A stretch of 64,000 nucleotides of DNA. Source: an uncultured Roseibium sp. (lineage in GTDB: Bacteria > Pseudomonadota > Alphaproteobacteria > Rhizobiales > Stappiaceae). The stretch spans positions 242,692 through 306,691 of the forward strand of contig NZ_CANMFD010000001.1 of the NCBI RefSeq assembly GCF_947496995.1, read 5' to 3'. Under the pieces are notes generated by a model. The model searched no databases and was not told the DNA's origin. It worked only from the letters and a program-made list of their open reading frames with translations. A program made the translations under genes and the position numbers. This document shows, piece after piece, positions 8,174 to 44,914 of the stretch (positions within the stretch are counted from its first letter, which is position 1; each line of letters begins with the position of its first letter).

Positions 8174-8715
8174 GAAATCGGGTCCACATTCTTCAGGGGC
8201 GGCAGGGTTCGGTCACGTTCGGAAAGCGTGCCGATTTCCAGAGGCCAGGCGATGGCGACGTCCGGATCTGCGTGATGCAATCCGCCTTCATTTTCGGGGC
8301 TGTAGCTGTCCGAGTGGAAATACAGCAGCTCCGCATTCGGTGTCAGTGTCTGGAAGCCATGCGCGCACCCGGCAGGAATGTAGATCATCTCTCCACCTTC
8401 CGAACTGAGCGTCACCGAAGTCCATTGCCCGAAGGTTTCGGAGCCCTTGCGAAGATCGACGATGACATCGAAGACAGCGCCTTGCATGCATTTCACCAGT
8501 TTTGCATCCGCTTTCGGCGGCCGCTGGAAATGCATGCCGCGCAGGGTGCCCTTCTCAGCGCTGTAAGACACGTTGCACTGTTCCCAGGTCCCGGCCAGTC
8601 CATGCCGCTGGAACTCTTCACGGCAGAACATCCGGGCAAAAAAGCCCCGGCTGTCGCCCCTGCGCTCCAGGCCAACCTGATAGGCGCCGGCAAGGGAAAG
8701 AGGCGTGAACTTCAT
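8170..8715 (-). CDS. RmlC-like cupin, NDP-4-keto-6-deoxyhexose 3,5- (or 5-) epimerase family
   Basis: Start at MKFTPL. Contains GDSRGFF, LRGMHFQ, KLVKCMQGAVFDVIVDLR and GCAHGFQTL, as in RfbC/RmlC. ATGA overlaps on both sides. Confidence 0.8.
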   Translation of the reverse strand: MKFTPLSLAGAYQVGLERRGDSRGFFARMFCREEFQRHGLAGTWEQCNVSYSAEKGTLRGMHFQRPPKADAKLVKCMQGAVFDVIVDLRKGSETFGQWTSVTLSSEGGEMIYIPAGCAHGFQTLTPNAELLYFHSDSYSPENEGGLHHADPDVAIAWPLEIGTLSERDRTLPPLKNVDPIS

Positions 8716-9764
8716 CTGTCGGCCTCGAAAGTGGCGATCTGGTCGCGGGTAACCTGAAGTGGGTCGGCGCCTTCCGCAACCTGGCGGTACCAGGTGACCG
8801 TTTTTTCGATCGCGTTCGCGAACCGCCAGGCAGGCGCCCAGCCGAGGTCGCAGCGTGCCTTGTCGATCGACAGCGAAAGACGGCCGGCTTCGTGGACGGC
8901 ATGCGCGTCGGACGCGTCGGTCCATTTGCCGGGCCAGTGTTGCAGGATGGTATCGGCCAGGTCCCGAACGGAAAACACATCGGCCGGCTCGGGGCCGAAA
9001 TTATATCCGCACTGGAACCGCGCATCTGCCGCCAAATGCACGCGTTCGGCCAGAGTGAGATAACCCTCGAGCGGATCGAGCACATGCTGCCAGGGACGGA
9101 TCGAGGCGGGATTGCGGATTTCTGCCGGATTTCCGGCTTGCAGGGAGCGGATGATATCGGGAACCAGACGATCCTCCGCCCAATCCCCACCACCGATGAC
9201 ATTGCCCGCCCGGGCCGTTGCTATCTTCAAACCGCCGCCGCCGAAGGACCGGCGCCAGCTGGCGGACACGAGTTCGGTGGCTGCCTTGGAGGCCGAATAC
9301 GGATCGTATCCGCCGAGCGGATCGTTCTCGCGGTAGGCATACGCCCATTCGTGGTTTTCATAGACCTTGTCGGTGGTCACGACGATGACCGTCACCGGTC
9401 GATCCAGCCTGTGCAGCGCGTCCAGAAGATGAACGGTGCCCATCACATTGGTCGCCCAGTTTCCGACCGGATCCTTGTAGGAACGGCGGACCAGGGACTG
9501 GGCCGCAAGATGAAGAACGATTTCCGGCCGGGTCGCGGCAACTTCCTTCTGCAGCGCATCCGCATCGCGGATGTCGAGAAGGGCGTTTCTCATCCGGGTG
9601 TCCAGTTTCAGGCCGGCATATAGGCTGCTGTCTCCCTCGGCGGGAAGCGCGATGCCGGAAACCTCGGCACCCCGTCCGATCAGCAGTTCGCTCAACCAGG
9701 CTCCCTTGAAACCCGTATGCCCGGTCAGGAGAACCTTTCTGTCTTGCCAGAAGCTCATCGCCAT
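8712..9764 (-). CDS. rfbG: CDP-glucose 4,6-dehydratase
   Basis: 350 aa. LLTGHTGFKGAWLSELL with YSASK catalytic motif. Directly downstream of the cytidylyltransferase. Confidence 0.88.
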   Translation of the reverse strand: MAMSFWQDRKVLLTGHTGFKGAWLSELLIGRGAEVSGIALPAEGDSSLYAGLKLDTRMRNALLDIRDADALQKEVAATRPEIVLHLAAQSLVRRSYKDPVGNWATNVMGTVHLLDALHRLDRPVTVIVVTTDKVYENHEWAYAYRENDPLGGYDPYSASKAATELVSASWRRSFGGGGLKIATARAGNVIGGGDWAEDRLVPDIIRSLQAGNPAEIRNPASIRPWQHVLDPLEGYLTLAERVHLAADARFQCGYNFGPEPADVFSVRDLADTILQHWPGKWTDASDAHAVHEAGRLSLSIDKARCDLGWAPAWRFANAIEKTVTWYRQVAEGADPLQVTRDQIATFEADR

Positions 9765-31462: not shown

Positions 31463-32011
31463 ATGGACTACGCCAACGGGGGAATAGAAATGCCTGAACC
31501 TTCTGAAGTCTCGTTGCCGGGCTCGGATTTGCCGCAGATGCTTCAGATGGATTTGGATATCGGGGATTTTTGCTCGAACTGGGCGCATTGCGATCTTCTT
31601 TCCGCATATCTCGCCCGGATGGTCAGTCACAACCGCCTCGATTCACTCCTGTTTTCAAATCTTTATTCCTCCGCGCTGAACGAATTGCTGGAAACCGTTT
31701 TCAGGGTTCACGGCAAGTCGGGCAAGCTGGAATGCTCGGTCCGGCGGCAGGGTGGTCTGGACCGGATCGAACTGGTTTTTCCGGCGGACGAAGACACGTT
31801 CCGGGTTTACAGCGAAGCGATCGACAAGCTGTCCGGCAAGGATGCGGAAAAGCTGTATCTGGAAGCGTTGTTTACCGAGGACGAACCGGACGCAAGTCTG
31901 GGACTTCTGGAACTCGGTGTCGATTACGGCGCCAGGCTTGCCATCGACCGGGCCGGCGACGGCCGGATGTGTCTGGTCGCCGAACTCACGCTTGAGGACG
32001 AAAACGAATGA
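31463..32011 (+). CDS. degenerate GHKL (SiaB/RsbW-like, 'slr1658-type') paralogue, probable pseudokinase
   Basis: Alignable by eye with 35571-36116 but lacks the N-box Asn and the Gly-rich lid. An alternative start at ATG 31490 has a better SD (GGGGGA). Stop overlaps the next gene (ATGA). Confidence 0.6.
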   Translation: MDYANGGIEMPEPSEVSLPGSDLPQMLQMDLDIGDFCSNWAHCDLLSAYLARMVSHNRLDSLLFSNLYSSALNELLETVFRVHGKSGKLECSVRRQGGLDRIELVFPADEDTFRVYSEAIDKLSGKDAEKLYLEALFTEDEPDASLGLLELGVDYGARLAIDRAGDGRMCLVAELTLEDENE

Positions 32012-33186
32012 TTGCGGAAAATTCCACCCAGGCGTTTCAGTGGACCTATAACGAAAACGATCAGGAGTTCGCCCTGCACGGCAGCCTCCGCCCGCAGAAG
32101 GCGGAAGAGCTGAGCAACTGCATTTCGGCGCTCGATCAGTCTGTTTCCAACGTCAGCGGCAAATTCTACGTGAATGTCCGCCGCCTGGTGCGCATGAACA
32201 ATGTCGCCTTCCATGCCATCGCCTGCAAGATCCTGGATCTGGTGCGCGGTCGCAGCGACCTCGACGTCCATGTGACCACGTCGAGCGTTGTTGGCTGGGC
32301 AACGCGAAAGTTCGCGGTCCTGGAAACCATGTCCGACAAGATCACGGTGAGCGAATACGACAGCGAGTTCTACCCGGGTCAGTCCTTTGTCGAGGATAGT
32401 GAATTCATCCACGTCCTGCGCACCCAGACGAAATTGACGTGGAAGCATGAAAAGGACCTGCTGCGACAGCACGGCCTGAAGCCCGGCATGCAGGTTGCCG
32501 ACATCTGCTGCGGGATCGGTGATTTCGCGGTCCTTTTGCAGAAGGAATTCAGCCCGGACCGGCTGGTCGCGCTGGATCATTCCAAATCGAGCCTCGATTA
32601 TGCGCGTCAGGTTGCCGCGGACTTCGGCATCAAGGGGATCGACTATGTTTTCGGCGATGCGGCCGACATGCTGCTGGAGGACAATCAGTTCGATTTCGTC
32701 ACCTGCAGGCATTCCCTCCAGGTTTTCGACCGACCCGAACTGATCCTCAAGGAACTCTTCCGGATCTGCAAACCGGGCGGCCGGATCTACGTCACCAACG
32801 AGAAGAACTCCCATTGCCTGGGCGAGCCGCGCGGCGAGTCGATCCAGTGGACCTACAACGAGGTCGCCAAGCTCTGGCATCATTTCGACATGGACATCGA
32901 GATCGGCCCGAAAAGCCGGCGCTTGCTGATCGAAGGCGGCTTCGAGGATGTGACCATCGGCTCCTTCATGGTCACCAGCACCGATGGTGACCCGCAGGGC
33001 TTCGCCGATATCATTGCCTCGTGGAAGAACCTCTTCGCCGGCAAGATGGCAAGCGAGCGCGGTGACGATGCGGCTTTTGTCGAGCGTTTCGCCAAGGGAT
33101 TTGACGACCACATCTTTGCGGCGCTTCACCCCAAGGGATATGCCGGATGGCCGATCTGGGTGGCCTCGGGGCGCAAGCCGCTATGA
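32008..33186 (+). CDS. fusion protein: N-terminal STAS/SiaC-like ('slr1659-type') domain + class I SAM-dependent methyltransferase
   Basis: Residues ~1-115 are paralogous to the 112 aa protein at 36148-36486. MTase motifs present: VADICCGIGDF, ALDHS, FDFVTCRHSL, KPGGRIYV. Confidence 0.7.
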   Translation: MIAENSTQAFQWTYNENDQEFALHGSLRPQKAEELSNCISALDQSVSNVSGKFYVNVRRLVRMNNVAFHAIACKILDLVRGRSDLDVHVTTSSVVGWATRKFAVLETMSDKITVSEYDSEFYPGQSFVEDSEFIHVLRTQTKLTWKHEKDLLRQHGLKPGMQVADICCGIGDFAVLLQKEFSPDRLVALDHSKSSLDYARQVAADFGIKGIDYVFGDAADMLLEDNQFDFVTCRHSLQVFDRPELILKELFRICKPGGRIYVTNEKNSHCLGEPRGESIQWTYNEVAKLWHHFDMDIEIGPKSRRLLIEGGFEDVTIGSFMVTSTDGDPQGFADIIASWKNLFAGKMASERGDDAAFVERFAKGFDDHIFAALHPKGYAGWPIWVASGRKPL

Positions 33187-35567
33187 CGACACCGGCTACC
33201 ACTTCGCCGAGCGAAAAGCAGATCGGCCGCTTTTCGCTGCGCAGCTTCCGCGCCAAGTTCATGCTGGTCGTGGGCGCCGCGGTTCTGTTCGACCTCGCGC
33301 TTGCAGGCGGCATCGGCATCTGGAACGTCCAGCGGCTGTCTAAGGACGCCACCCAGCAGGTCGGTGACGGTCTCACCACGGCGACCGAGGAATATCTCCA
33401 GACCTATATCGACACGACGGCGTTCCGGGCCGATCTGCTGATCGAGCGGGTGCACTCGGAACTCGCGACGCTCGCCACCACCATGCAGACGCTGATCGAT
33501 CATCCTGAAATCCAGGAAGCGGTCGGCGATACCGTGACCGGCAGCCCGGATTTTTCCTCGCCTCTGGCTTATGACGCCAACGGTGGATGGGCCCAGAACG
33601 AGGCCGGCGTGCCCTCGGCCGTCAGCGTCTGGGGATACCTGCTCGACGAAAACAGGCAACCGGTGCCCAAAGCCGCCGAAGAGCTGAAAAAGAGTGCCTT
33701 CCTCAGCCTCGTCGGCCCTTCGATGATGTCGACGGGCGCGCCCAAGCTGCAAATCTATTATGTCGGCCCGAAAGACGCCTCGATCATGCGGGCGACCCCT
33801 TATTCCGAACAGGCGCAGACGTTCGATCTGCTCTATCCGGGACACAACGAAGGCCCGAACTTCTGGGACTTCTTTTTCCCCGGCGTCTATGAAGGCTGGC
33901 AGGCATGGATCGCGGACCCGTCCTCGAAGCCGGTGGACTCCAACATCGTCACCACGGCGCCCTATGTGGACGCGATCACCGGCGAACTGATCGTCAGCTT
34001 CTTTCATCCGCTATGGTCGAGCGACCGCAAGGACCTGGCCGGCATGGTGGCGGTCGACATCACCCTTGAACAGCTCACATCGCTGGTCGAGAGTCTTGAA
34101 ATTTCCGAGACCGGCTTCGGCTTCCTGGCCATGTCCGACGGCAATGTGGTGGCGACCAACTCCATAGGCGAGGAAACCCTGGGTCTCGTTTCCACCGATG
34201 TCAGCGGTCAGGGCGTCACCGGGGTCAACCGGAACCTGAAGGAAAGCAGCCAGGCCGCGATTGCCTCGCTTGAGCTCAATGCGACCCATGAAACGGTCAT
34301 CGAGCATATCTTCCTCGATCAGGGCGGCGAGGAAGTGCCCTATCTTCTCGTGCTCAAGCAGCTCAATCCCACCAACCTGTGGGACGGGGCGGGGATCACC
34401 GGTGAAACGATGACCCTCGGGTTCGTCGTCTCGGAGCGGGAAATCTACCAGTCCCTGATCGACGCGACCGACAATATCTCCGCCGCAACGACGCGCATCC
34501 TGAACTATCAGATCATCGCTTTCTTCTTCAGCATCGTGGTGGTCTTCCTGGCTGTCTACGCGATCTCCGGTCGTATCACCAAAGGCCTGTCGCGGCTGGC
34601 AGATGCTGCCAGGGCGTTGCAGAACAAGGACTATTCCGTCCGCGTCGAGATCCCCACCCGTGACGAAGTGGCGGCGGTGGGCCTGGCGTTCAATCGCATG
34701 GCGGAAGAGATCAGCTATCATACCGAGAACCTGGAAAACCTGGTCGAGGAACGCACCAAAAAGCTGGAGACCGCCAACAGCGAGATCGTCGCGCTGAATG
34801 CACGCCTGAAGTCCGAAAACAGCAGGCTGGGCGCCGAGCTCGACATCGCCAAGCGTATTCAGGAGATGGTGCTTCCGCGCCTCAGCGAGCTGGAAATCAT
34901 CCCGCAGATCGAGATCGCCGCCTTCATGGAGCCGGCGGACGAGGTCGGCGGAGACTATTACGACGTTCTGTTCGACGGCGAGCACATCAAGGTCGGTATC
35001 GGCGACGTGACCGGTCACGGGCTGGAAAGCGGCGTCCTGATGCTGATGGTCCAGTCTGTCGCCCTGGCGCTGCAGGAAAAGGGTGACAGGGATCCTGTCG
35101 CCTTTCTCGATGTCCTGAACCGGGCGGTCTTCAAGAACATCACCAGGACCCGCTCCGACAAGCACCTGACGCTGGCCTTTGTCGATTATCACGAAGGCAA
35201 GGTGACCTTGTCCGGCCAGCACGAAGAGGTTCTGATCATTCGCGCGAACGGCGAAACGGAACGCATCGACACCATCGATCTCGGCTTCCCGGTCGGTCTT
35301 GAAGAGGACATCTCACCCTTCGTCGCCACCCTGGACATGCCCTTCGGGCCGGAGGATGTTCTCATCCTGCACACGGACGGCATCACCGAAGCGGAAAACG
35401 ACAAGGGCGAGATGTTCGGCATCGATCGGCTCAGCGAGAGTGCACATGAAAACCGGCTGAAATCGGCGAAGGGTATTGCGGAAGCGGTCATACTTGATGT
35501 CAAGTCGCATATTGGCGGGCATAAGGTATTCGATGACATCACACTTGTCGTACTGAAGCATAGGTAG
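33183..35567 (+). CDS. membrane sensor PP2C/SpoIIE phosphatase (TM - Cache-like periplasmic domain - TM - HAMP - coiled coil - PP2C), SiaA/RsbU-like
   Basis: TM1 FMLVVGAAVLFDLALAGGIGIW and TM2 IIAFFFSIVVVFLAVYAI. HAMP region (GLSRLADAARALQNKDYSVRVEI…EVAAVGLAFNRMAEE). PP2C motifs GGDYYD, IGDVTGHG and LHTDGITE. Start at ATG 33183 overlaps the upstream stop. Confidence 0.85.
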   Translation: MTTPATTSPSEKQIGRFSLRSFRAKFMLVVGAAVLFDLALAGGIGIWNVQRLSKDATQQVGDGLTTATEEYLQTYIDTTAFRADLLIERVHSELATLATTMQTLIDHPEIQEAVGDTVTGSPDFSSPLAYDANGGWAQNEAGVPSAVSVWGYLLDENRQPVPKAAEELKKSAFLSLVGPSMMSTGAPKLQIYYVGPKDASIMRATPYSEQAQTFDLLYPGHNEGPNFWDFFFPGVYEGWQAWIADPSSKPVDSNIVTTAPYVDAITGELIVSFFHPLWSSDRKDLAGMVAVDITLEQLTSLVESLEISETGFGFLAMSDGNVVATNSIGEETLGLVSTDVSGQGVTGVNRNLKESSQAAIASLELNATHETVIEHIFLDQGGEEVPYLLVLKQLNPTNLWDGAGITGETMTLGFVVSEREIYQSLIDATDNISAATTRILNYQIIAFFFSIVVVFLAVYAISGRITKGLSRLADAARALQNKDYSVRVEIPTRDEVAAVGLAFNRMAEEISYHTENLENLVEERTKKLETANSEIVALNARLKSENSRLGAELDIAKRIQEMVLPRLSELEIIPQIEIAAFMEPADEVGGDYYDVLFDGEHIKVGIGDVTGHGLESGVLMLMVQSVALALQEKGDRDPVAFLDVLNRAVFKNITRTRSDKHLTLAFVDYHEGKVTLSGQHEEVLIIRANGETERIDTIDLGFPVGLEEDISPFVATLDMPFGPEDVLILHTDGITEAENDKGEMFGIDRLSESAHENRLKSAKGIAEAVILDVKSHIGGHKVFDDITLVVLKHR

Positions 35568-35570
35568 GGT

Positions 35571-36116
35571 ATGGTCGAGGATTACGGAAATACGGCTGCA
35601 GTCAACGGCGCCGATGCCAGGCGCTTTGCCCTCAAGCTGATGGCGGAGCCACTGGAGTTGAGCTGGCATCATTGCGGTGTCACCTCCGATTTCTTCGGCG
35701 AGTATTTCAGCCGCGCCTGCGACGGCAGCGTGGATGCTGTGGACGCCCGCCACAGCATCAGCTACATGATCAACGAGATCCTGGAAAACGCCATCAAGTT
35801 CCGCAAAGGCGGCAATATCGACATCACCGGCAGCCTGGAGGACGGGACGTTCGAACTCCTGATCAGGAACCGGATCGATGCGGGCACGGCGGAAAGCTTC
35901 AAGGCACACCTTGCGCAACTGCTCGAGCGTGAGCCGGGCGAGCTGTTGCTGGAGCGCATCGAGGAAAATGCTCTCAATCCGGACTCGACCGGTTCGGGAC
36001 TTGGAATCCTCACGCTCATGAGCGATTACGAAGCCAAATTGGGCTGGTCTTTCGCCTCCGAGCATGTAAGTGAAGGCGTAGAGTTGACGACCTATGCGTC
36101 TTTGCGACTTTCCTGA
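35571..36116 (+). CDS. GHKL-type serine/threonine kinase / anti-sigma-factor-like protein (SiaB/RsbW-like, 'slr1658-type')
   Basis: 181 aa. N-box NEILENAIKF and G-box DSTGSGLGILTL. Starts 3 nt after the phosphatase stop. Confidence 0.7.
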   Translation: MVEDYGNTAAVNGADARRFALKLMAEPLELSWHHCGVTSDFFGEYFSRACDGSVDAVDARHSISYMINEILENAIKFRKGGNIDITGSLEDGTFELLIRNRIDAGTAESFKAHLAQLLEREPGELLLERIEENALNPDSTGSGLGILTLMSDYEAKLGWSFASEHVSEGVELTTYASLRLS

Positions 36117-36147
36117 TCGCTGAAATATTCCAAAGGAAGACACCACA

Positions 36148-36486
36148 ATGGAAATCAGCACGAACGATTACCGCGTTTGGACTGAAGGTTCGACCATCCA
36201 CTATGAAGGTACGATGCGGCTCTCCGGCACGGATGCCTACGCGCCGATCCTGGAAGCCATGAATTCCATTCTGGCCGCCAAGCCGGAACTCATCACGCTT
36301 GACCTGACTAGCCTGCAGTTTCTCAACAGCTCGGGCATCAACCTGCTTGCCAAATTCACCATCGAAATCAGGAAGCAGCCGGAAGTCGGCGTCCGGGTTC
36401 TCGGGTCGAAGTCGATCCCCTGGCAATCGAAATCCCTCCGTAACCTGCAGCGTCTGCACCCCGCCCTGGAACTGACGATTTCCTGA
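36148..36486 (+). CDS. small STAS/SiaC-like partner-switching protein ('slr1659-type')
   Basis: 112 aa. LITLDLTSLQFLNSSGINLL resembles the phospho-acceptor loop of anti-anti-sigma factors and SiaC. SD AAGGAAG lies upstream. Confidence 0.65.
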   Translation: MEISTNDYRVWTEGSTIHYEGTMRLSGTDAYAPILEAMNSILAAKPELITLDLTSLQFLNSSGINLLAKFTIEIRKQPEVGVRVLGSKSIPWQSKSLRNLQRLHPALELTIS

Positions 36487-36684
36487 CCGCAATGCGGTCA
36501 GCCGCCTGAAGGTATCCGGGTGAATTTCCGCCTGGAAAGCCCGCTGCGGTTCGATGTTTTCCGGTGTGCAGCCATGCTGCAGGCGCGGCGCGCCCCGCCG
36601 CTCCGCTGATCTCCGCGCATTTTCCCTAAAGTTGGAACGGATCTTCACTTCAGGCGTTTGCCCCGCAACAGCGGGGTATATCGC

Positions 36685-37644
36685 ATGGAATTTTCTGAAG
36701 AGAACAGGCAGGAGCTGCCGGAGCCGTCTGGCGCCCGGTCCACACGTCGCGTCGGCGTCGAAATCGAATTCGGCGGACTGACCGCGATTGAAGCAGCCGA
36801 AGTCGTCGTTGCGCAGCTTGGGGGCGATATCGAGAAGATCGACAGGCACCGCTACCGTCTCGTTGGTACGGCGCTGGGAGACTTCAAGGTCGAGCTCGAC
36901 AGCAAATACGTGCACAGCGAGGACGACGCCTCGGACCTGGAACGCAAGGTCCGCAGCTTTGCCGGTGATCTGACAGGACCGATCGTTCCGACCGAGTTGG
37001 TCACCGATCCTTTGCCGGTTTCCCGGATCGGGGAAATCGACGCGCTGCTTGACCGCCTCGTCGCAGCCGGGGCGCTCGGCACGCAGCAGCTTCATCTGGC
37101 CTGCGGGCTGCATCTCAATGTCGAGTGGAACGACCGGGATATCCTGCCCATCTTGCGTATCCTGCAGGCCTACCTGATCAGTTCGCCTGACCTCCGCCGT
37201 GAGATTGCGCCCGATCCGATGAGGACACTGCTGCCGTTTATCGGTCACTTTCCGGAGGACTATCAGGACAAGGTTCTGGCCCCGGACTACCAACCGGATT
37301 TCAAGCGCTTTGTCGTCGATTACTGCCGCGCCAACCCGTCGAAGAACCGCGAGCTGGACCTGTTGCCGCTGCTCGCTTCGATTGATGAGGACACCGTCGC
37401 GGAAGCGCTCGGTCACCCGCCGGAGGCCGTGCGCCCCGCGTTCCACTACCGTCTGCCCAACGCCTCCCTTGGCGAGAGCAACTGGTCGATCGAAAAGGAA
37501 TGGGATCGCTGGTTGTCCGTGGAGGCGCTGGCAGTGGATGAGGACAGGCTCAAGGCCGCTCTGTCCGCACGAAAAATGCCCGACACCAAACAGGAAGAGA
37601 CGGGGACCTTTACCCGGATACTCAAGCGGGTGATCGGCAAATGA
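36685..37644 (+). CDS. Amidoligase_2-family (glutamine-synthetase-fold) COOH-NH2 ligase, substrate unknown
   Basis: The N-terminal RRVGVEIEFGG strand motif and size (~320 aa) fit the putative amidoligase family. Start chosen at MEFSEENR (ATG 36685). Confidence 0.55.
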   Translation: MEFSEENRQELPEPSGARSTRRVGVEIEFGGLTAIEAAEVVVAQLGGDIEKIDRHRYRLVGTALGDFKVELDSKYVHSEDDASDLERKVRSFAGDLTGPIVPTELVTDPLPVSRIGEIDALLDRLVAAGALGTQQLHLACGLHLNVEWNDRDILPILRILQAYLISSPDLRREIAPDPMRTLLPFIGHFPEDYQDKVLAPDYQPDFKRFVVDYCRANPSKNRELDLLPLLASIDEDTVAEALGHPPEAVRPAFHYRLPNASLGESNWSIEKEWDRWLSVEALAVDEDRLKAALSARKMPDTKQEETGTFTRILKRVIGK

Positions 37645-38354
37645 AACCGCTGATCGGAGTTTCCACATCCGCGCGCGGCGGCTGGCGGTCCTTTCTGGCG
37701 ATCCGCTTTGCGCTCTGGCGCGCCGGGGCGACCGCAAGGCGCATCACCGCCGGAAAACCATATGATCTGAACGAGCTTGACGGCATCATCGCCGGCGGCG
37801 GCGATGATATTTCCGCGACGCTCTACGGTGGCAGCCTGATACCGGACGTCCGGCTCGATCCGGAACGCGATGCGCTCGAAACTAAGCTCATCCGGTCGGC
37901 GGTCAGCCGCGGGTTGCCCGTTCTGGGCATCTGCCGCGGCGCGCAGATGATCAATGTGTCGCTTGGCGGAAATCTCCATGCCGACGTTTGGGAAGCGTTC
38001 AAGAGCGCGCCCGAAATACGCACTGTGCTGCCGCGCAAGCGGATCACAGTGTCGAAAGACTCATGGCTCGACACGATTCTGGAGTGTGACGGCTGCCGTG
38101 TGAATGCCTTGCACCACCAGTCGGTGGACTCTCTCGGAGAGGGGTTGAGAGTGAGCGCCACAGATGACTACGGCATCATTCAGGCCATCGAGTCGGTCTC
38201 CCGCCCGCAGATACTTGGCGTCCAGTGGCACCCCGAACTGATGCCCTTCACGCGCAATCAACTCGGGCTGTTCACCTGGCTCGCCGACACCGCCAGAAAC
38301 CGCGAAACGAAAACAGAGCATTTCATGCCCGGATTTGAGCGCCAGGCCGGGTGA
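37641..38354 (+). CDS. peptidase C26 / class I glutamine-amidotransferase-like gamma-glutamyl hydrolase (PuuD-like)
   Basis: PVLGICRGAQMINV (nucleophile Cys), NALHHQS and VQWHPE (His/Glu of the triad). ATGA overlap with the amidoligase gene. Confidence 0.8.
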   Translation: MKPLIGVSTSARGGWRSFLAIRFALWRAGATARRITAGKPYDLNELDGIIAGGGDDISATLYGGSLIPDVRLDPERDALETKLIRSAVSRGLPVLGICRGAQMINVSLGGNLHADVWEAFKSAPEIRTVLPRKRITVSKDSWLDTILECDGCRVNALHHQSVDSLGEGLRVSATDDYGIIQAIESVSRPQILGVQWHPELMPFTRNQLGLFTWLADTARNRETKTEHFMPGFERQAG

Positions 38355-41051: not shown

Positions 41052-41861
41052 ATGCAGAAGGTCAAGAGGTCGATTTTGCTCGAGACACGGCACGTAACCG
41101 CAGCTTATGGAAAACTGGAAGTGCTGAGCGATGTGTCCGTGCTCTTCCGGAAGGGCCGGCTGACGGCGGTCGCCGGGCCGAATGGCTGCGGCAAGTCCAG
41201 CCTGCTGAAAGCCATCATGGGGTTTCTGCCTGTCAGTGGTGGCGAGATCGTCCTGGAAGGCGAACAGGTGGCGCGGATCGGCCGGAAAAAGCTTGCCCGC
41301 CGCATCGCCTATCTGCCGCAGGACTGTTTCTGCCCGGACTATATGACCCTTGGCGAATTGATCGAGCTGGCAGGCTATTCCCGCTACGGGCTGGCCGGTG
41401 GGCCTTCCGAGCGAGACCGCGCGCTTTACCGGGAGGTGCTCGAAACGGTCGGATTGAGCGACAGGGCGGGATTTCCCGTCAACAAGCTTTCAGGCGGTCA
41501 GCGCCAGCGCGCCTGGATTGCCATGGTGCTGGCCCAGGACACGGATATCGTCCTTCTGGATGAACCGGTGAACCATCTCGACATGAAGTATCAATTCGCC
41601 GTTCTTGAACTGATCAGGGAACTGACCGAGATCCACGGAAAGACCGTCGTCGCGGTGCTGCACGACCTCAACCTGACCACCACCTTCGCCGACGACGTTG
41701 TCCTGATGCGCTCGGGCAGATGCGTGACGTCCGGGCCGGTTGCCGAGACGGTGACCACCGGCAACATCGAACGGGTTTTCGATCTCCGGACCCAGATTTT
41801 TCCAAGGGATGGACGCCTCGTCTGCTTTCCGGAGCGCGCGGGACACGCAGCGGTCTCCTGA
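41052..41861 (+). CDS. iron-siderophore ABC transporter ATP-binding protein (FecE/FepC-like)
   Basis: Walker A GPNGCGKSS, signature LSGGQRQRAWIAMVLA, Walker B IVLLDEP. Start at ATG 41052. Confidence 0.88.
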   Translation: MQKVKRSILLETRHVTAAYGKLEVLSDVSVLFRKGRLTAVAGPNGCGKSSLLKAIMGFLPVSGGEIVLEGEQVARIGRKKLARRIAYLPQDCFCPDYMTLGELIELAGYSRYGLAGGPSERDRALYREVLETVGLSDRAGFPVNKLSGGQRQRAWIAMVLAQDTDIVLLDEPVNHLDMKYQFAVLELIRELTEIHGKTVVAVLHDLNLTTTFADDVVLMRSGRCVTSGPVAETVTTGNIERVFDLRTQIFPRDGRLVCFPERAGHAAVS

Positions 41862-42874
41862 TGGAAAGGCGCACAGTCTTCCTGCTTGCGGTTCTTCCCC
41901 TGTTGCTGGTCGCGCTCGCCCTGCATTTGCTGGTGGGCTACCGGCCAGCGGATATTCCGGGCCTCATCGGCGCGGTGCTTCGCTTCGAAGCCCAAAGCTA
42001 CGACGAGGCCGTGCTCCTGTTCCAGCGTCTGCCGCGCAGCCTGATCGCGATCTATGTCGGCAGCATCGCCGCTGCCAGCGGCTTCGTGCTGCAGAGCCTT
42101 GTGCGCAATCCTCTGGCGTCTCCGGCAACAATGGGTGTCAATGCGGGTGCCGCCCTGTTTCTCGTGGCCGGCGCGCTTGTGCTTGATATCGGACCGGCGC
42201 TGCAGGGTGTGGCCGCCCTTGCCGGGGCTCTGGCCGGCTTCGTTTGCTGCATTGCCATTGCCCGCTTTGCCGGCCGCCGCAACGATCCGCGCGGATTGTC
42301 GCTTATCCTTTCCGGAGCGCTGGTCTCCATGCTGTTTACCGGCATAACCAACGCCTTTTTGCTGTCCGACCCCGCACGGCGTTCGGAGTTTCTGAGCTGG
42401 GTGGTCGGCACAATCAATCATGCCTATATCGACAGGCTCGCCATGTTCTGGTGGGTCGGGGCGGGCGCCATCGTCGCCTTCCTCCTGCTCGCGCGGCCCC
42501 TCACGCTGATCCTGTTTGGCGCGGAAAAGGCGGCCTCGACCGGTGTCAATGTGCCCCTCGTCTCCCGCATCGCGATCCTGGCTGCCGTGCTTGGCTCCGG
42601 TTCCGTCGTCGCCGTATGCGGCCCGATCGGCTTCGTGGGACTGATCGTGCCGCATATGGTGCGCCCCTTTGTGGGCAACAATCTGGTCTTCGCGCTGCCT
42701 GCCTCGCTTGCGACGGGCGCCGTGGTCTGCCTGCTGGCGGATGTCTTCGCGCGCGAGGCTCTTTACCCCTATGTGCTGAGCACGGGCCTGGTGACGGATC
42801 TGATCGGCGGCGTCGTCTTTGTCATCATCGTCAAGCGTTTCTATCTCTCTCCTGCCAATCGGGAAGCGGCATGA
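41861..42874 (+). CDS. FecCD-family iron-siderophore ABC permease
   Basis: LPRSLIAIYVGSIAAASGFVLQSLVRNPLASPATMGVNAGAAL is typical of FecCD. Start overlaps the ATPase stop by 1 nt. Confidence 0.85.
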   Translation: MERRTVFLLAVLPLLLVALALHLLVGYRPADIPGLIGAVLRFEAQSYDEAVLLFQRLPRSLIAIYVGSIAAASGFVLQSLVRNPLASPATMGVNAGAALFLVAGALVLDIGPALQGVAALAGALAGFVCCIAIARFAGRRNDPRGLSLILSGALVSMLFTGITNAFLLSDPARRSEFLSWVVGTINHAYIDRLAMFWWVGAGAIVAFLLLARPLTLILFGAEKAASTGVNVPLVSRIAILAAVLGSGSVVAVCGPIGFVGLIVPHMVRPFVGNNLVFALPASLATGAVVCLLADVFAREALYPYVLSTGLVTDLIGGVVFVIIVKRFYLSPANREAA

Positions 42875-43938
42875 TCAGGCGCGGCACCGCGACGGACGGC
42901 AAACGGGTCCTGCGACTGGCGAACGGTCTTCAGATGCGGACCGGAAATCTCCTGGCAGGCTGCGGGCTTGCCGCAGCGGCGCTGATCCTGGCCGCCTGGT
43001 CCACAGGGCTCGGCCTGACGGATGCCGGACTTGCCGATCTGCTACGGGCGCTCACGGGCGGCTCTCTGTCCGATGCCGAAACATATGCGCTCCTGACGGT
43101 CCGGCTGCCGCGGATCCTGCTGGGCTTCATGGTCGGCTGGGCGGTGGCGCTCTCCGGTGCGCTGCTCCAGTCGATTGCGCGCAATCCACTCGCCGATCCT
43201 GGCCTTTTCGGTTTTAGCCAGGGCTCGATGATCATGATCATGCTGCTTCTGGTGATTGCACCGGTCGCGCCGAAAAGCCTGGTTGCGCTGGCAGCCGTGA
43301 CAGGCGGGCTGTGCGTTGCCGGCCTGCTGCTCTGGCTGGTCGGCGGCGAGCGGTCAAGCGGCCTTTCGATCGTGCTGTTGGGGATCGCCGTCGAGACGGT
43401 TCTGTCCTCGTTCGGCTCGCTGCTGATCCTCTACCTGCCGACGGAAACCTCGATTGCCCTGTCCGAATGGCTTGCGGGGTCTCTGTTCCAGGCCAACTGG
43501 AGCGTGATCGCGGCCTTTACGCCGCTGTTCGTGCTTGGCCTTGTCGGCAGTCTTCTCGCCGGGGGCGCGACTTCCGCCTACGACCTTGGCACGGAGATGG
43601 CGCAGGCGCTTGGCGAACCTGTCGCCAGATCGCGGCCGTTGATCCTTCTGTTCGCGGTCGTCCTGAGTGCTGCCGCGGTGACGGCTGTCGGACCTCTGGT
43701 CTTTCTGGGAGTGCTCGCGCCGCATATTGCCGGCTTTCTCTCGCCGGCCGTCGGCCGGGCCCGCTTGTTACTCTCCGGGTTGGTGGGGGGCATGCTTGTC
43801 GTTGCCGCCGACGCACTCACCCGCGGCATTGCCGGTGGCCTCCCCCTGCCGCTCGGTCTCAGTCTGACGATGGTCGGTGTTCCGCTTTTCATCATCGCGC
43901 TGCGTCTTCAGGCGTTGCGAAAACTCCAGTCTCATTGA
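42871..43938 (+). CDS. FecCD-family iron-siderophore ABC permease (second subunit)
   Basis: RLPRILLGFMVGWAVALSGALLQSIARNPLADPGLFGFSQGS. ATGA overlap with the first permease gene. Confidence 0.85.
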   Translation: MIRRGTATDGKRVLRLANGLQMRTGNLLAGCGLAAAALILAAWSTGLGLTDAGLADLLRALTGGSLSDAETYALLTVRLPRILLGFMVGWAVALSGALLQSIARNPLADPGLFGFSQGSMIMIMLLLVIAPVAPKSLVALAAVTGGLCVAGLLLWLVGGERSSGLSIVLLGIAVETVLSSFGSLLILYLPTETSIALSEWLAGSLFQANWSVIAAFTPLFVLGLVGSLLAGGATSAYDLGTEMAQALGEPVARSRPLILLFAVVLSAAAVTAVGPLVFLGVLAPHIAGFLSPAVGRARLLLSGLVGGMLVVAADALTRGIAGGLPLPLGLSLTMVGVPLFIIALRLQALRKLQSH

Positions 43939-43948
43939 AAGGTTTCTC

Positions 43949-44914
43949 ATGCGGTTTCTCGTTTCCTGCGCAGTCGCGGCCGTTCTGACGGCAAGCCCCG
44001 TTTTTGCGGCCGACCGTCTTCTCACCGACGATACCGGCCGGGAGATAACTATCCCGGACACTCCGGAACGGATCGTTGTCATGCACGAACCCCTGCTCGG
44101 CGTTCCGCTGATGGACCTTGGTCTGGAGCTTGCCGGCAGCTACGGCCGCGCGGACGACGGCGGCTTCGTGATCGCGGTGGATTTCATCGACACCGTGCTC
44201 GGCGAGGGCAAGGCCAAACCGAAGGGGTTCGGGCCGGTCGGCCAGCCGGACCTGGAAAAGTTGCGGGCGCTGGAGCCCGACCTGATCCTGGCGAGCGAAC
44301 TCGATGCAGGAAAGGTCGATCAGCTCTCGACCGTCGCTCCCGTTTATCTGCAGAATATCAGCGGCGACAAGGTGCACGGCTTTGACATTCAGGAGAACCT
44401 TGCGGCGCTGCTCGGCCGGGAGGATCTGTTTGAAGCTCGCAAGGCTGGCTATATGGAGCGTGTCGCCGAGTTGCGCGCCGCCCTGCCGGGAGATGCGGCC
44501 GGCCAGACCTATCTGCCGGTCTTCCTGACGGATCAGATCAACGTTGTCGGCGATTCTTCCGGCATGGTGCAGGCGCTGGAGGATCTTGGTTACACTCGGC
44601 TCGAGGTCGCCGAGGCGAGCACCACCTCGGCGAGCGGTGGCTCCATGATGCTGATGCCGCTCAGCGCCGAGGTGTTCGGCAGCTTGAACCCGGATATCCT
44701 TGTCCTGTTGAACAGCTATATGGACAGCAGCCGCGACGAGGCGGGCACGCGTGAAAAGCTCGACAGGATCGTCCCCGGCTGGGACCGTTTTATGAAACCC
44801 GCCCTGGAAAATCGCATTCTCTTTGTCGATCCCGCAACGGTCATCACGCCGACGGTGGCGAGTGCGGAACACATGCTGGACGCCATCGAGCACTGGAGCG
44901 GGCAGGCACAGTAG
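43949..44914 (+). CDS. periplasmic iron-siderophore binding protein (FecB/FhuD-like, cluster A SBP)
   Basis: Signal peptide MRFLVSCAVAAVLTASPVFA. Followed by TDDTGREITIPDTPERIVV, typical of this family. Confidence 0.8.
   Translation: MRFLVSCAVAAVLTASPVFAADRLLTDDTGREITIPDTPERIVVMHEPLLGVPLMDLGLELAGSYGRADDGGFVIAVDFIDTVLGEGKAKPKGFGPVGQPDLEKLRALEPDLILASELDAGKVDQLSTVAPVYLQNISGDKVHGFDIQENLAALLGREDLFEARKAGYMERVAELRAALPGDAAGQTYLPVFLTDQINVVGDSSGMVQALEDLGYTRLEVAEASTTSASGGSMMLMPLSAEVFGSLNPDILVLLNSYMDSSRDEAGTREKLDRIVPGWDRFMKPALENRILFVDPATVITPTVASAEHMLDAIEHWSGQAQ

Follow-up and report, generated by a model that had tools for sequence, protein, structure and literature searches.

A 64,000-nucleotide stretch of DNA from an uncultured Roseibium sp. 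(contig NZ_CANMFD010000001.1, positions 242,692 to 306,691; hereafter the window) carries a compact cassette in which proteins resembling the phosphatase, kinase and STAS-type antagonist of bacterial partner switches are encoded together with an S-adenosylmethionine (SAM)-dependent methyltransferase. The five open reading frames (ORFs) of the cassette all lie on the + strand, span positions 31463-36486, and are named A, B, C, D and E in order (Table 1). An earlier note made from the sequence alone had described these five ORFs, and each is present in the ORF list of the window as it was given there; the junctions it reported are likewise read directly in the sequence, with ATGA overlaps at 32008-32011 (A-B) and 33183-33186 (B-C), and short gaps between C and D and between D and E. 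The A-B and B-C junctions are, to judge from these overlaps, translationally coupled, and a Shine-Dalgarno-like AAGGAAG precedes the start of E at 36148. At the B gene, the window shares 98% identity with Labrenzia sp. OB1 and 95% with R. marinum.

Table 1. Features of the cassette and its 3' side, in window coordinates (aa, amino acids; nt, nucleotides).
Feature	Position	Strand	Description
A	31463-32011	+	182-aa degenerate paralogue of D; start perhaps ATG 31490 (173 aa)
B	32008-33186	+	392 aa; STAS-like N-domain and class I SAM methyltransferase
B N-domain	32008-32361	+	Residues 1-118; STAS-like paralogue of E
B methyltransferase domain	32362-33186	+	Class I SAM-dependent, with helical/beta cap
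C	33183-35567	+	Sensor phosphatase: transmembrane segment 1, ~390-aa periplasmic dCache-like domain, transmembrane segment 2, HAMP, coiled coil, PP2C/SpoIIE
Gap C-D	35568-35570		3 nt
D	35571-36116	+	181-aa RsbW/SpoIIAB-like GHKL protein, slr1658 superfamily; presumed serine kinase of E
Gap D-E	36117-36147		31 nt
E	36148-36486	+	112-aa STAS-type antagonist, slr1659 superfamily; Ser61 presumed phospho-acceptor
Inverted repeat TGACCGC-AAT-GCGGTCA	36484-36500	+	7-bp arms; begins at the E stop codon; no T tract after
Amidoligase_2 gene	36658-37644		Downstream of the cassette
Peptidase_C26/GATase gene	37641-38354		Gamma-glutamyl hydrolase-like; 4-nt overlap with the Amidoligase_2 gene

A pattern-based scan across 185,579 species-representative genomes gave relatives of B at 519 places, and the conservation counts below refer to the best 80 of these loci, in which B is 63-98% identical; residue counts are taken over 81 sequences for A and B, and over 78 for D and E. 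A lower-identity set beyond the 80, which includes loci L086, L089 and L090, is treated separately, as the distant loci.

Homology supports the assignment of the last three genes to the parts of a partner switch, with C as a membrane sensor phosphatase, D as an RsbW/SpoIIAB-like kinase, and E as the STAS substrate and antagonist of D, carrying a conserved Ser61. The layout that the earlier note gave for C (transmembrane segment, Cache-like region, transmembrane segment, HAMP, coiled coil and PP2C) is borne out by hydropathy, which places hydrophobic segments at residues ~24-47 and 438-466, and by Pfam, which matches SpoIIE/PP2C at 120 bits and HAMP at 48.7 bits; the dCache_1 match is partial (residues 240-331) and, at 38 bits, lies below the cut-off of 45. 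The GGDYYD and GDVTGHG motifs of C are invariant. A SiaA-like match is confined to the C-terminal half of the protein and reaches 129.9 bits (E = 1e-37) against an equivalog cut-off of 700 (NF038263).

D matches the NCBIfam model slr1658_superfam (NF047703) over its full length at 167.5 bits (E = 2e-49; cut-off 100), and does not reach the cut-off of either the slr1658_cyano equivalog (NF052618; 101.9 bits against 200) or SiaB_fam (NF038262; 16.5 bits, E = 0.0045, against 85). Its N-box (NEILENAIKF, with N68, E69, E72 and N73) and G-box (GSGLG, with S142-G143-x-G145) are invariant in 78 of 78 sequences, and its Pfam match to HATPase_c is weak, at 19 bits. Against PDB sequences the D profile gave only N-box matches to histidine kinases, and a fold search was needed for its placement: an AlphaFold 2 (AF2) model built from 35 homologues, with a mean predicted local distance difference test score (pLDDT) of 90.6, has UsfX, SpoIIAB and RsbW as its top Foldseek matches (E values of 1.5e-5 to 4e-4), followed by the catalytic and ATP-binding (CA) domains of histidine kinases. 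The superfamily score, the invariant motifs and the model thus agree with the description of D in the earlier note as a GHKL protein with an N-box and a G-box.

E had been called STAS/SiaC-like, and it is the STAS part of that description that stands. E scores 143.4 bits against slr1659_superfam (NF047705; E = 3e-42, cut-off 100), and its family profile matches the STAS protein RsfB (8ih8) in the PDB at E = 7e-4, with SpoIIAA matched too; neither Pfam nor NCBIfam gives a match to the SiaC/DUF1987 families, the sole Pfam match being to STAS at 19 bits. Ser61, within an invariant FLNSSG, aligns with the serine of FLGSVG in RsfB and is the counterpart of Ser58 in SpoIIAA. The run N60-S61-S62-G63 is invariant in 78 of 78 sequences, and across the 80 loci E is 56-99% identical.

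The two upstream genes repeat this pair in altered form. That A is a paralogue of D, as previously noted, is agreed on by BLASTP (E = 3e-6 against D), by hhalign with D-family sequences over 134 columns (95%, E = 2e-8) and by slr1658_superfam (E = 4e-20). The score of A against this last model, 72 bits, is below the cut-off of 100, so that A counts as diverged and falls outside formal membership; against slr1658_cyano it scores 21.5 bits. The later start in Table 1 is considered because the NCBI homologues of A have that shorter length. These homologues are named 'ubiquinone biosynthesis methyltransferase UbiE' in NCBI and UniRef, a name that we reject as a propagated misannotation, since the proteins lack a methyltransferase domain and are instead GHKL paralogues of the slr1658-like type.

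The N-terminus of B had been read as a paralogue of E fused to a class I methyltransferase, and hhalign, slr1659_superfam and Pfam agree with this. Residues 6-113 match slr1659_superfam at E = 7e-7, with a score of 29.5 bits that is below the cut-off of 100, and hhalign against the E family gives 90% when close homologues are used and 97.8% (E = 1.1e-12, 108 columns) when 15 diverse N-domains are used. Profiles were needed here, as plain BLASTP of the B N-domain against E gives E = 0.05, at which paralogy is not shown; in distant relatives the paralogues match each other's hidden Markov models (HMMs) at 1e-10 to 1e-11. The AF2 topology of residues 10-116 (beta-beta-alpha-beta-alpha-beta-alpha-beta) is as in STAS, and the N-domain profile has a weak match to MlaB-type STAS proteins.

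Within the second part of B, residues 139-266 match Methyltransf_11, Methyltransf_25 and Methyltransf_31 in Pfam at E ~1e-18, with UbiE-type matches likewise. An ADICCGIGD motif is invariant, as are the SAM-binding residues D165, G169, G171, D190 and D217 (81 of 81 sequences). The AF2 model of B (pLDDT 80) matches methyltransferases by Foldseek at E = 3e-18, in the order 3mgg, whose function is unannotated, then LahSB (6uak), a C-terminal methyltransferase of a ribosomally synthesized and post-translationally modified peptide, and then the small-molecule methyltransferases PMT, TleD, RebM and GtmA. These structural neighbours are varied and no equivalog cut-off is approached, and the substrate is therefore not deducible from them. 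We rejected the assignment of B as a UbiE/MenG quinone methyltransferase, for which the best score is 69 bits against equivalog and subfamily cut-offs of 158-420, and also the possibility of an anti-phage defence system, for which PADLOC gives only a generic methyltransferase-domain match.

In every one of the 80 loci that is not truncated by the end of its contig, all five genes stand on one strand in the order A-B-C-D-E, with flanks that vary, and the methyltransferase of B is the only non-signalling enzyme always linked to the cassette. Of the 80 genome loci, 79 have A immediately before B, as do four of five distant loci; in locus L072 an extra ORF separates the two. The cassette occurs in Roseibium, Rhizobium, Mesorhizobium, Ensifer/Sinorhizobium, Devosia, Phyllobacterium, Aestuariivirga, Parvibaculum and Inquilinus, and the five-gene order is also found in a metagenome-assembled genome of the Chthoniobacteraceae (Verrucomicrobiota) and in metagenomic loci in which B is 37% and 33% identical. 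Conservation of the arrangement across genomes was a check put forward in the earlier note, and the arrangement is indeed kept from Roseibium to Verrucomicrobiota as the flanks change. Sinorhizobium meliloti 1021 (L093) and 2011 (L091) carry the intact cassette on pSymB at ~460.7-465.6 kb (NC_003078.1 and NC_020560.1, respectively), just 3' of a GGDEF-EAL gene; in S. meliloti ABS7 (L092, 4909-6058) the B gene matches in two pieces, possibly through a frameshift, and is not in the gene table.

Variants of the layout are found as well. Locus L086 (1822-8928) is without A and has two sensor phosphatases with a D fragment between them, and in L090, where B is 34% identical, the genes read A-B-D-E on a contig ending right after E, without a C identified between B and D. 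In Inquilinus limosus (L083, 9311-10234) a 307-aa cytoplasmic PP2C replaces the membrane sensor. In an exploratory mirror-tree analysis, A, the B N-domain, D and E co-vary (r 0.69-0.84), and the B N-domain tracks A and D (r 0.81-0.84) better than it tracks its own methyltransferase domain (r 0.68).

We think it likely that the five genes function as a single module. The opposite view, that C-D-E is a phospho-switch and A-B a stand-alone enzyme with an accessory subunit, the two units being adjacent without cross-talk, draws on the divergence of A and the B N-domain, both of which score below the NCBIfam cut-offs, and on the variants L086 and L090; we regard it as highly improbable. The genes remain neighbours in the same order across phyla, and do so even where identity falls to 33-37% and the flanks change, an ATGA overlap joins B to C, and a relative of B that is without the N-domain (43% identity) lies at a locus without partner-switch genes. 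Moreover, the two proteins that would interact in the neighbouring unit are precisely those to which A and the B N-domain are homologous.

The sequences of the duplicated pair depart from those of D and E in a consistent way. A keeps N-E-x-x-E, and its Mg-binding Asn position is occupied by T (53 sequences), V (20), A (5) or I (3), with Asn in 0 of 81; the GxG box is lost. In the B N-domain N64-N65 is invariant (81 of 81), with Asn65 opposite Ser61 of E, which is Ser in 78 of 78 sequences, and N64 opposite N60. The same holds in kind for the distant loci, where the N-box Asn position of A is S, T, A or Y and the acceptor position of the B N-domain is A, N, H, A and once T. Because these motifs are systematically degenerate, A is probably a kinase-dead, binding-only 'pseudokinase', and the B N-domain looks like a STAS domain that phosphorylation cannot switch off. 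The earlier note had proposed an internally duplicated partner-switching locus; the duplication stands, with both paralogies holding, and the A/B N-domain pair, being degenerate, is not a second working switch. This degeneracy is the main new point of the analysis. SpoIIAA S58A and RsbV S56A, in which the phospho-acceptor serine is replaced, bind their kinases stably and without release.

On balance we lean towards the methyltransferase B as the regulated output of the partner-switching module, a reading drawn from the gene context, with an outside signal probably switching the enzyme on or off. In the mechanism that we propose, D would phosphorylate E on Ser61, and C would remove the phosphate once its periplasmic dCache-like domain senses a ligand. 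A would be a kinase-dead copy of D that still binds STAS domains, as its degenerate motifs suggest, and the B N-domain would be a 'locked unphosphorylated' STAS mimic through which A (or D) holds the methyltransferase. Dephosphorylated E would then compete with the B N-domain for A (or D), and through this competition the binding state of the methyltransferase, and hence its activity, would change. The jobs of a classical anti-sigma kinase would be split between two proteins, with D resetting the antagonist and A sequestering a target that bears its own antagonist-like handle. That A and the B N-domain are a specific binding pair is the more tentative part of this scheme, and comes from their degenerate motifs.

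The proposal that B is the output is supported by the family assignments, the two paralogies, the conserved gene order with varying flanks, the putative ATGA coupling, the systematic degeneracy of the duplicated pair, the invariant SAM-binding residues, the partner-switch-free locus of the B relative without an N-domain, the exploratory covariation of the N-domain with A and D, and the SulP neighbours of a cyanobacterial pair described below. Several points count against it. A canonical DxGxG G1 box is not identified in D, whose kinase activity is a prediction; the distant locus L089 has Thr at the acceptor position of the B N-domain; and L086, which has no A, indicates that A is not always needed. 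The mirror-tree correlations give no choice between A and D as the partner of the B N-domain. The neighbouring genes of some loci and the genetics of a cyanobacterial homologue, described next, belong on the same side of the balance.

A GGDEF-EAL gene (~590 aa) lies directly 5' of A on the same strand in 20 of the 80 loci, in Mesorhizobium, Ensifer and Phyllobacterium (within L041-L082). In 47 of the 80 (L009-L040 and others) a divergent PP2C gene, coding for a cytoplasmic protein of ~310 aa and absent from the window, is found ~1 kb 5' of A, and 27 of those 47 also have an RsbW-like HATPase_c_2 kinase and a canonical STAS protein. This second PP2C often adjoins type VI secretion genes, and directly borders a type VI secretion cluster in Roseibium and some of the Rhizobium loci; it could be an extra input to the cassette. 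Two distant loci (L084 and L089) have an adenylate/guanylate cyclase gene upstream, and the GGDEF-EAL and cyclase neighbours may indicate a connection to signalling by nucleotide second messengers. Given the GGDEF-EAL or second-PP2C neighbours, the cassette may therefore have other outputs or inputs. Loss of slr1658 in Synechocystis changes transcription, with pgr5 up ~1000-fold (PMC6525291), and members of the superfamily can therefore act via other partners; the Slr1658/Slr1659 work is that of Zer et al. 2018, as it is cited in PMC7555055.

These observations bear on a different arrangement, in which B is an input or modulator that senses SAM, S-adenosylhomocysteine (SAH) or its substrate and titrates D (or A) via its STAS-like domain, and the target of E is encoded outside the cassette, being for example a transcription factor, a sigma/anti-sigma pair or a cyclic di-GMP (c-di-GMP) enzyme. 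The transcriptional phenotype of the slr1658 mutant (PMC6525291, PMC7555055), the GGDEF-EAL genes, the adjacent RsbW-like/STAS/PP2C triads and the high conservation of E, expected of a protein with several partners, would all suit it. No such target is conserved with the cassette, however, and 13 of the 80 loci, the window type included, have neither a GGDEF-EAL nor a second-PP2C neighbour. The window as a whole has no sigma-like ORF (tblastn with RpoE, SigB and SigF, E values up to 1), no GGDEF/EAL gene and no second partner-switch triad, so that the absence of a sigma factor or GGDEF gene remarked on in the earlier note holds across all 64 kb; no sigma factor is conserved beside the cassette among the 80 loci. 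B is conserved as strongly as E, catalytic residues included, which fits an enzyme whose activity matters, and the phosphatase C already gives a dedicated periplasmic input. We consider a role for B as an input unlikely.

The layout of C recalls methyl-accepting chemotaxis proteins (MCPs) in its dCache domain, transmembrane segments, HAMP and coiled coil, and this raises the question of whether B methylates a component of its own pathway (the HAMP/coiled coil of C, or D or E) in a CheR-like feedback or adaptation, with its STAS-like domain docking onto the kinase-like proteins. The apparent B-C translational coupling would accord with this, as would the presence among the closest structures of B of LahSB (6uak), which is a peptide carboxyl methyltransferase. 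Yet neither a CheR-type fold or domain nor a demethylase or deamidase partner is found in the cassette, the other structural neighbours (PMT, TleD, RebM and GtmA) are small-molecule methyltransferases, and a dedicated kinase-dead paralogue would be left unexplained. A feedback methylation of this kind seems improbable to us.

The cassette shares with RsbU-RsbV-RsbW and SpoIIE-SpoIIAA-SpoIIAB of Bacillus subtilis a PP2C phosphatase, a GHKL serine kinase/binder, and a STAS protein with a conserved serine starting helix 2, and, like the sigB operon (RsbR/S/T/X and RsbU/V/W), it has two paralogous kinase/STAS pairs. Unlike the Rsb and SpoIIA systems it is without a sigma factor, its second pair is degenerate and has its STAS domain fused to an enzyme, and its phosphatase is a membrane protein with a periplasmic sensing domain. 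D and E also belong to the separate slr1658 and slr1659 superfamilies, with only the weak Pfam matches to HATPase_c and STAS described above. The earlier note had likened the locus to both RsbUVW and SiaABC; the RsbW/RsbV part of this holds, and the SiaB/SiaC part does not, with D far under the SiaB_fam cut-off and SiaC/DUF1987 unmatched.

Even so, SiaA-SiaB-SiaC-SiaD of Pseudomonas aeruginosa (PMC7647112, PMC8457831) has much in common with the cassette in general plan, namely a HAMP-containing sensor PP2C, a small kinase, a small STAS-like protein with one phosphorylated residue, and an enzyme output. D is outside the SiaB family, E is outside SiaC/DUF1987, and C is below the SiaA equivalog cut-off. 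The candidate output of the cassette is a methyltransferase, whereas SiaD is a diguanylate cyclase without an antagonist-like domain, and SiaABCD has no kinase-dead paralogue. By family, D and E are related to Slr1658/Slr1659 of Synechocystis: they are above the superfamily cut-offs (NF047703 and NF047705), and D, being below that of the cyanobacterial equivalog (NF052618), belongs to another subfamily. The earlier note knew of no characterized partner switch with a methyltransferase output, and our open-access literature searches agree, having found no description either of such a switch or of the cassette.

One cyanobacterial locus offers a further comparison. On plasmid pA of Kovacikia minuta (L094, NZ_CP083583.1, 5558-11550), an slr1658-like gene (8265-8846) and an slr1659-like gene (~9001-9345) form a pair that overlaps the start of a gene for a SulP-STAS transporter with a cyclic nucleotide monophosphate (cNMP) domain, and is oriented divergently to another SulP-STAS-cNMP gene; a methyltransferase, an A and a C-type phosphatase are all absent from this locus. 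The position of this pair beside a STAS-bearing SulP hints that proteins with a STAS domain of their own are recurrent targets in the slr1658/slr1659 superfamily. SulP/SLC26 transporters, like various further STAS-containing proteins (PMC8256260), resemble B in carrying a built-in STAS-type domain as a regulatory handle; B differs in being a soluble methyltransferase, in having the domain at its N-terminus, and in that the domain is a close paralogue of a free antagonist encoded in the same operon.

It is quite possible, though we would stop short of calling it likely, that the cassette represents a new class of partner switch acting after translation, in which a signal from the periplasm would set how far free E is phosphorylated, and E would compete with a non-phosphorylatable STAS 'decoy' in B for the kinase-dead A, an 'anti-enzyme factor'. 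The slr1658/slr1659 pairs would then perhaps be general regulators of STAS-bearing proteins, acting on methyltransferases in the Alphaproteobacteria and Verrucomicrobiota, and on SulP transporters in cyanobacteria.

The inverted repeat that begins at the stop codon of E may mark the end of the operon or form an RNA-stabilising hairpin; it was not called in a terminator scan of the locus, and a promoter scan was equally uninformative. A search of the leader and intergenic regions against Rfam gave no riboswitch or known RNA and one match at chance level. The Amidoligase_2 and Peptidase_C26 genes listed in Table 1 were rejected as parts of the cassette, as they stand beside it only in the window and in R. 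marinum, and the creatinase and ABC transporter genes upstream were rejected as lineage-specific flanks. Farther downstream, the 2-kb bin 42001-44000 has an AT skew of -0.37, over a FecCD-type permease gene (41720-42874), which is probably codon bias of a membrane protein.

Partner switching is, in the textbooks, a means of sigma-factor control, and to our knowledge few non-sigma outputs have been described (Syp, and the cyclases SiaD and HsbD). Control of a methyltransferase, if true, would extend the mechanism to the direct regulation of a SAM-dependent enzyme, and a clean split of tasks between a kinase that is active and a paralogue that is kinase-dead and sequesters the target would extend it too. 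The name 'UbiE', as propagated on the kinase-like paralogue A, is corrected by the present analysis. The cassette is widespread, and its carriers include genetically tractable symbionts, among them S. meliloti (on pSymB), Mesorhizobium, Rhizobium and Ensifer. The proposed switch would give a testable mechanism to the slr1658/slr1659 superfamily, which includes a cyanobacterial regulator of pgr5 and of recovery from iron starvation.

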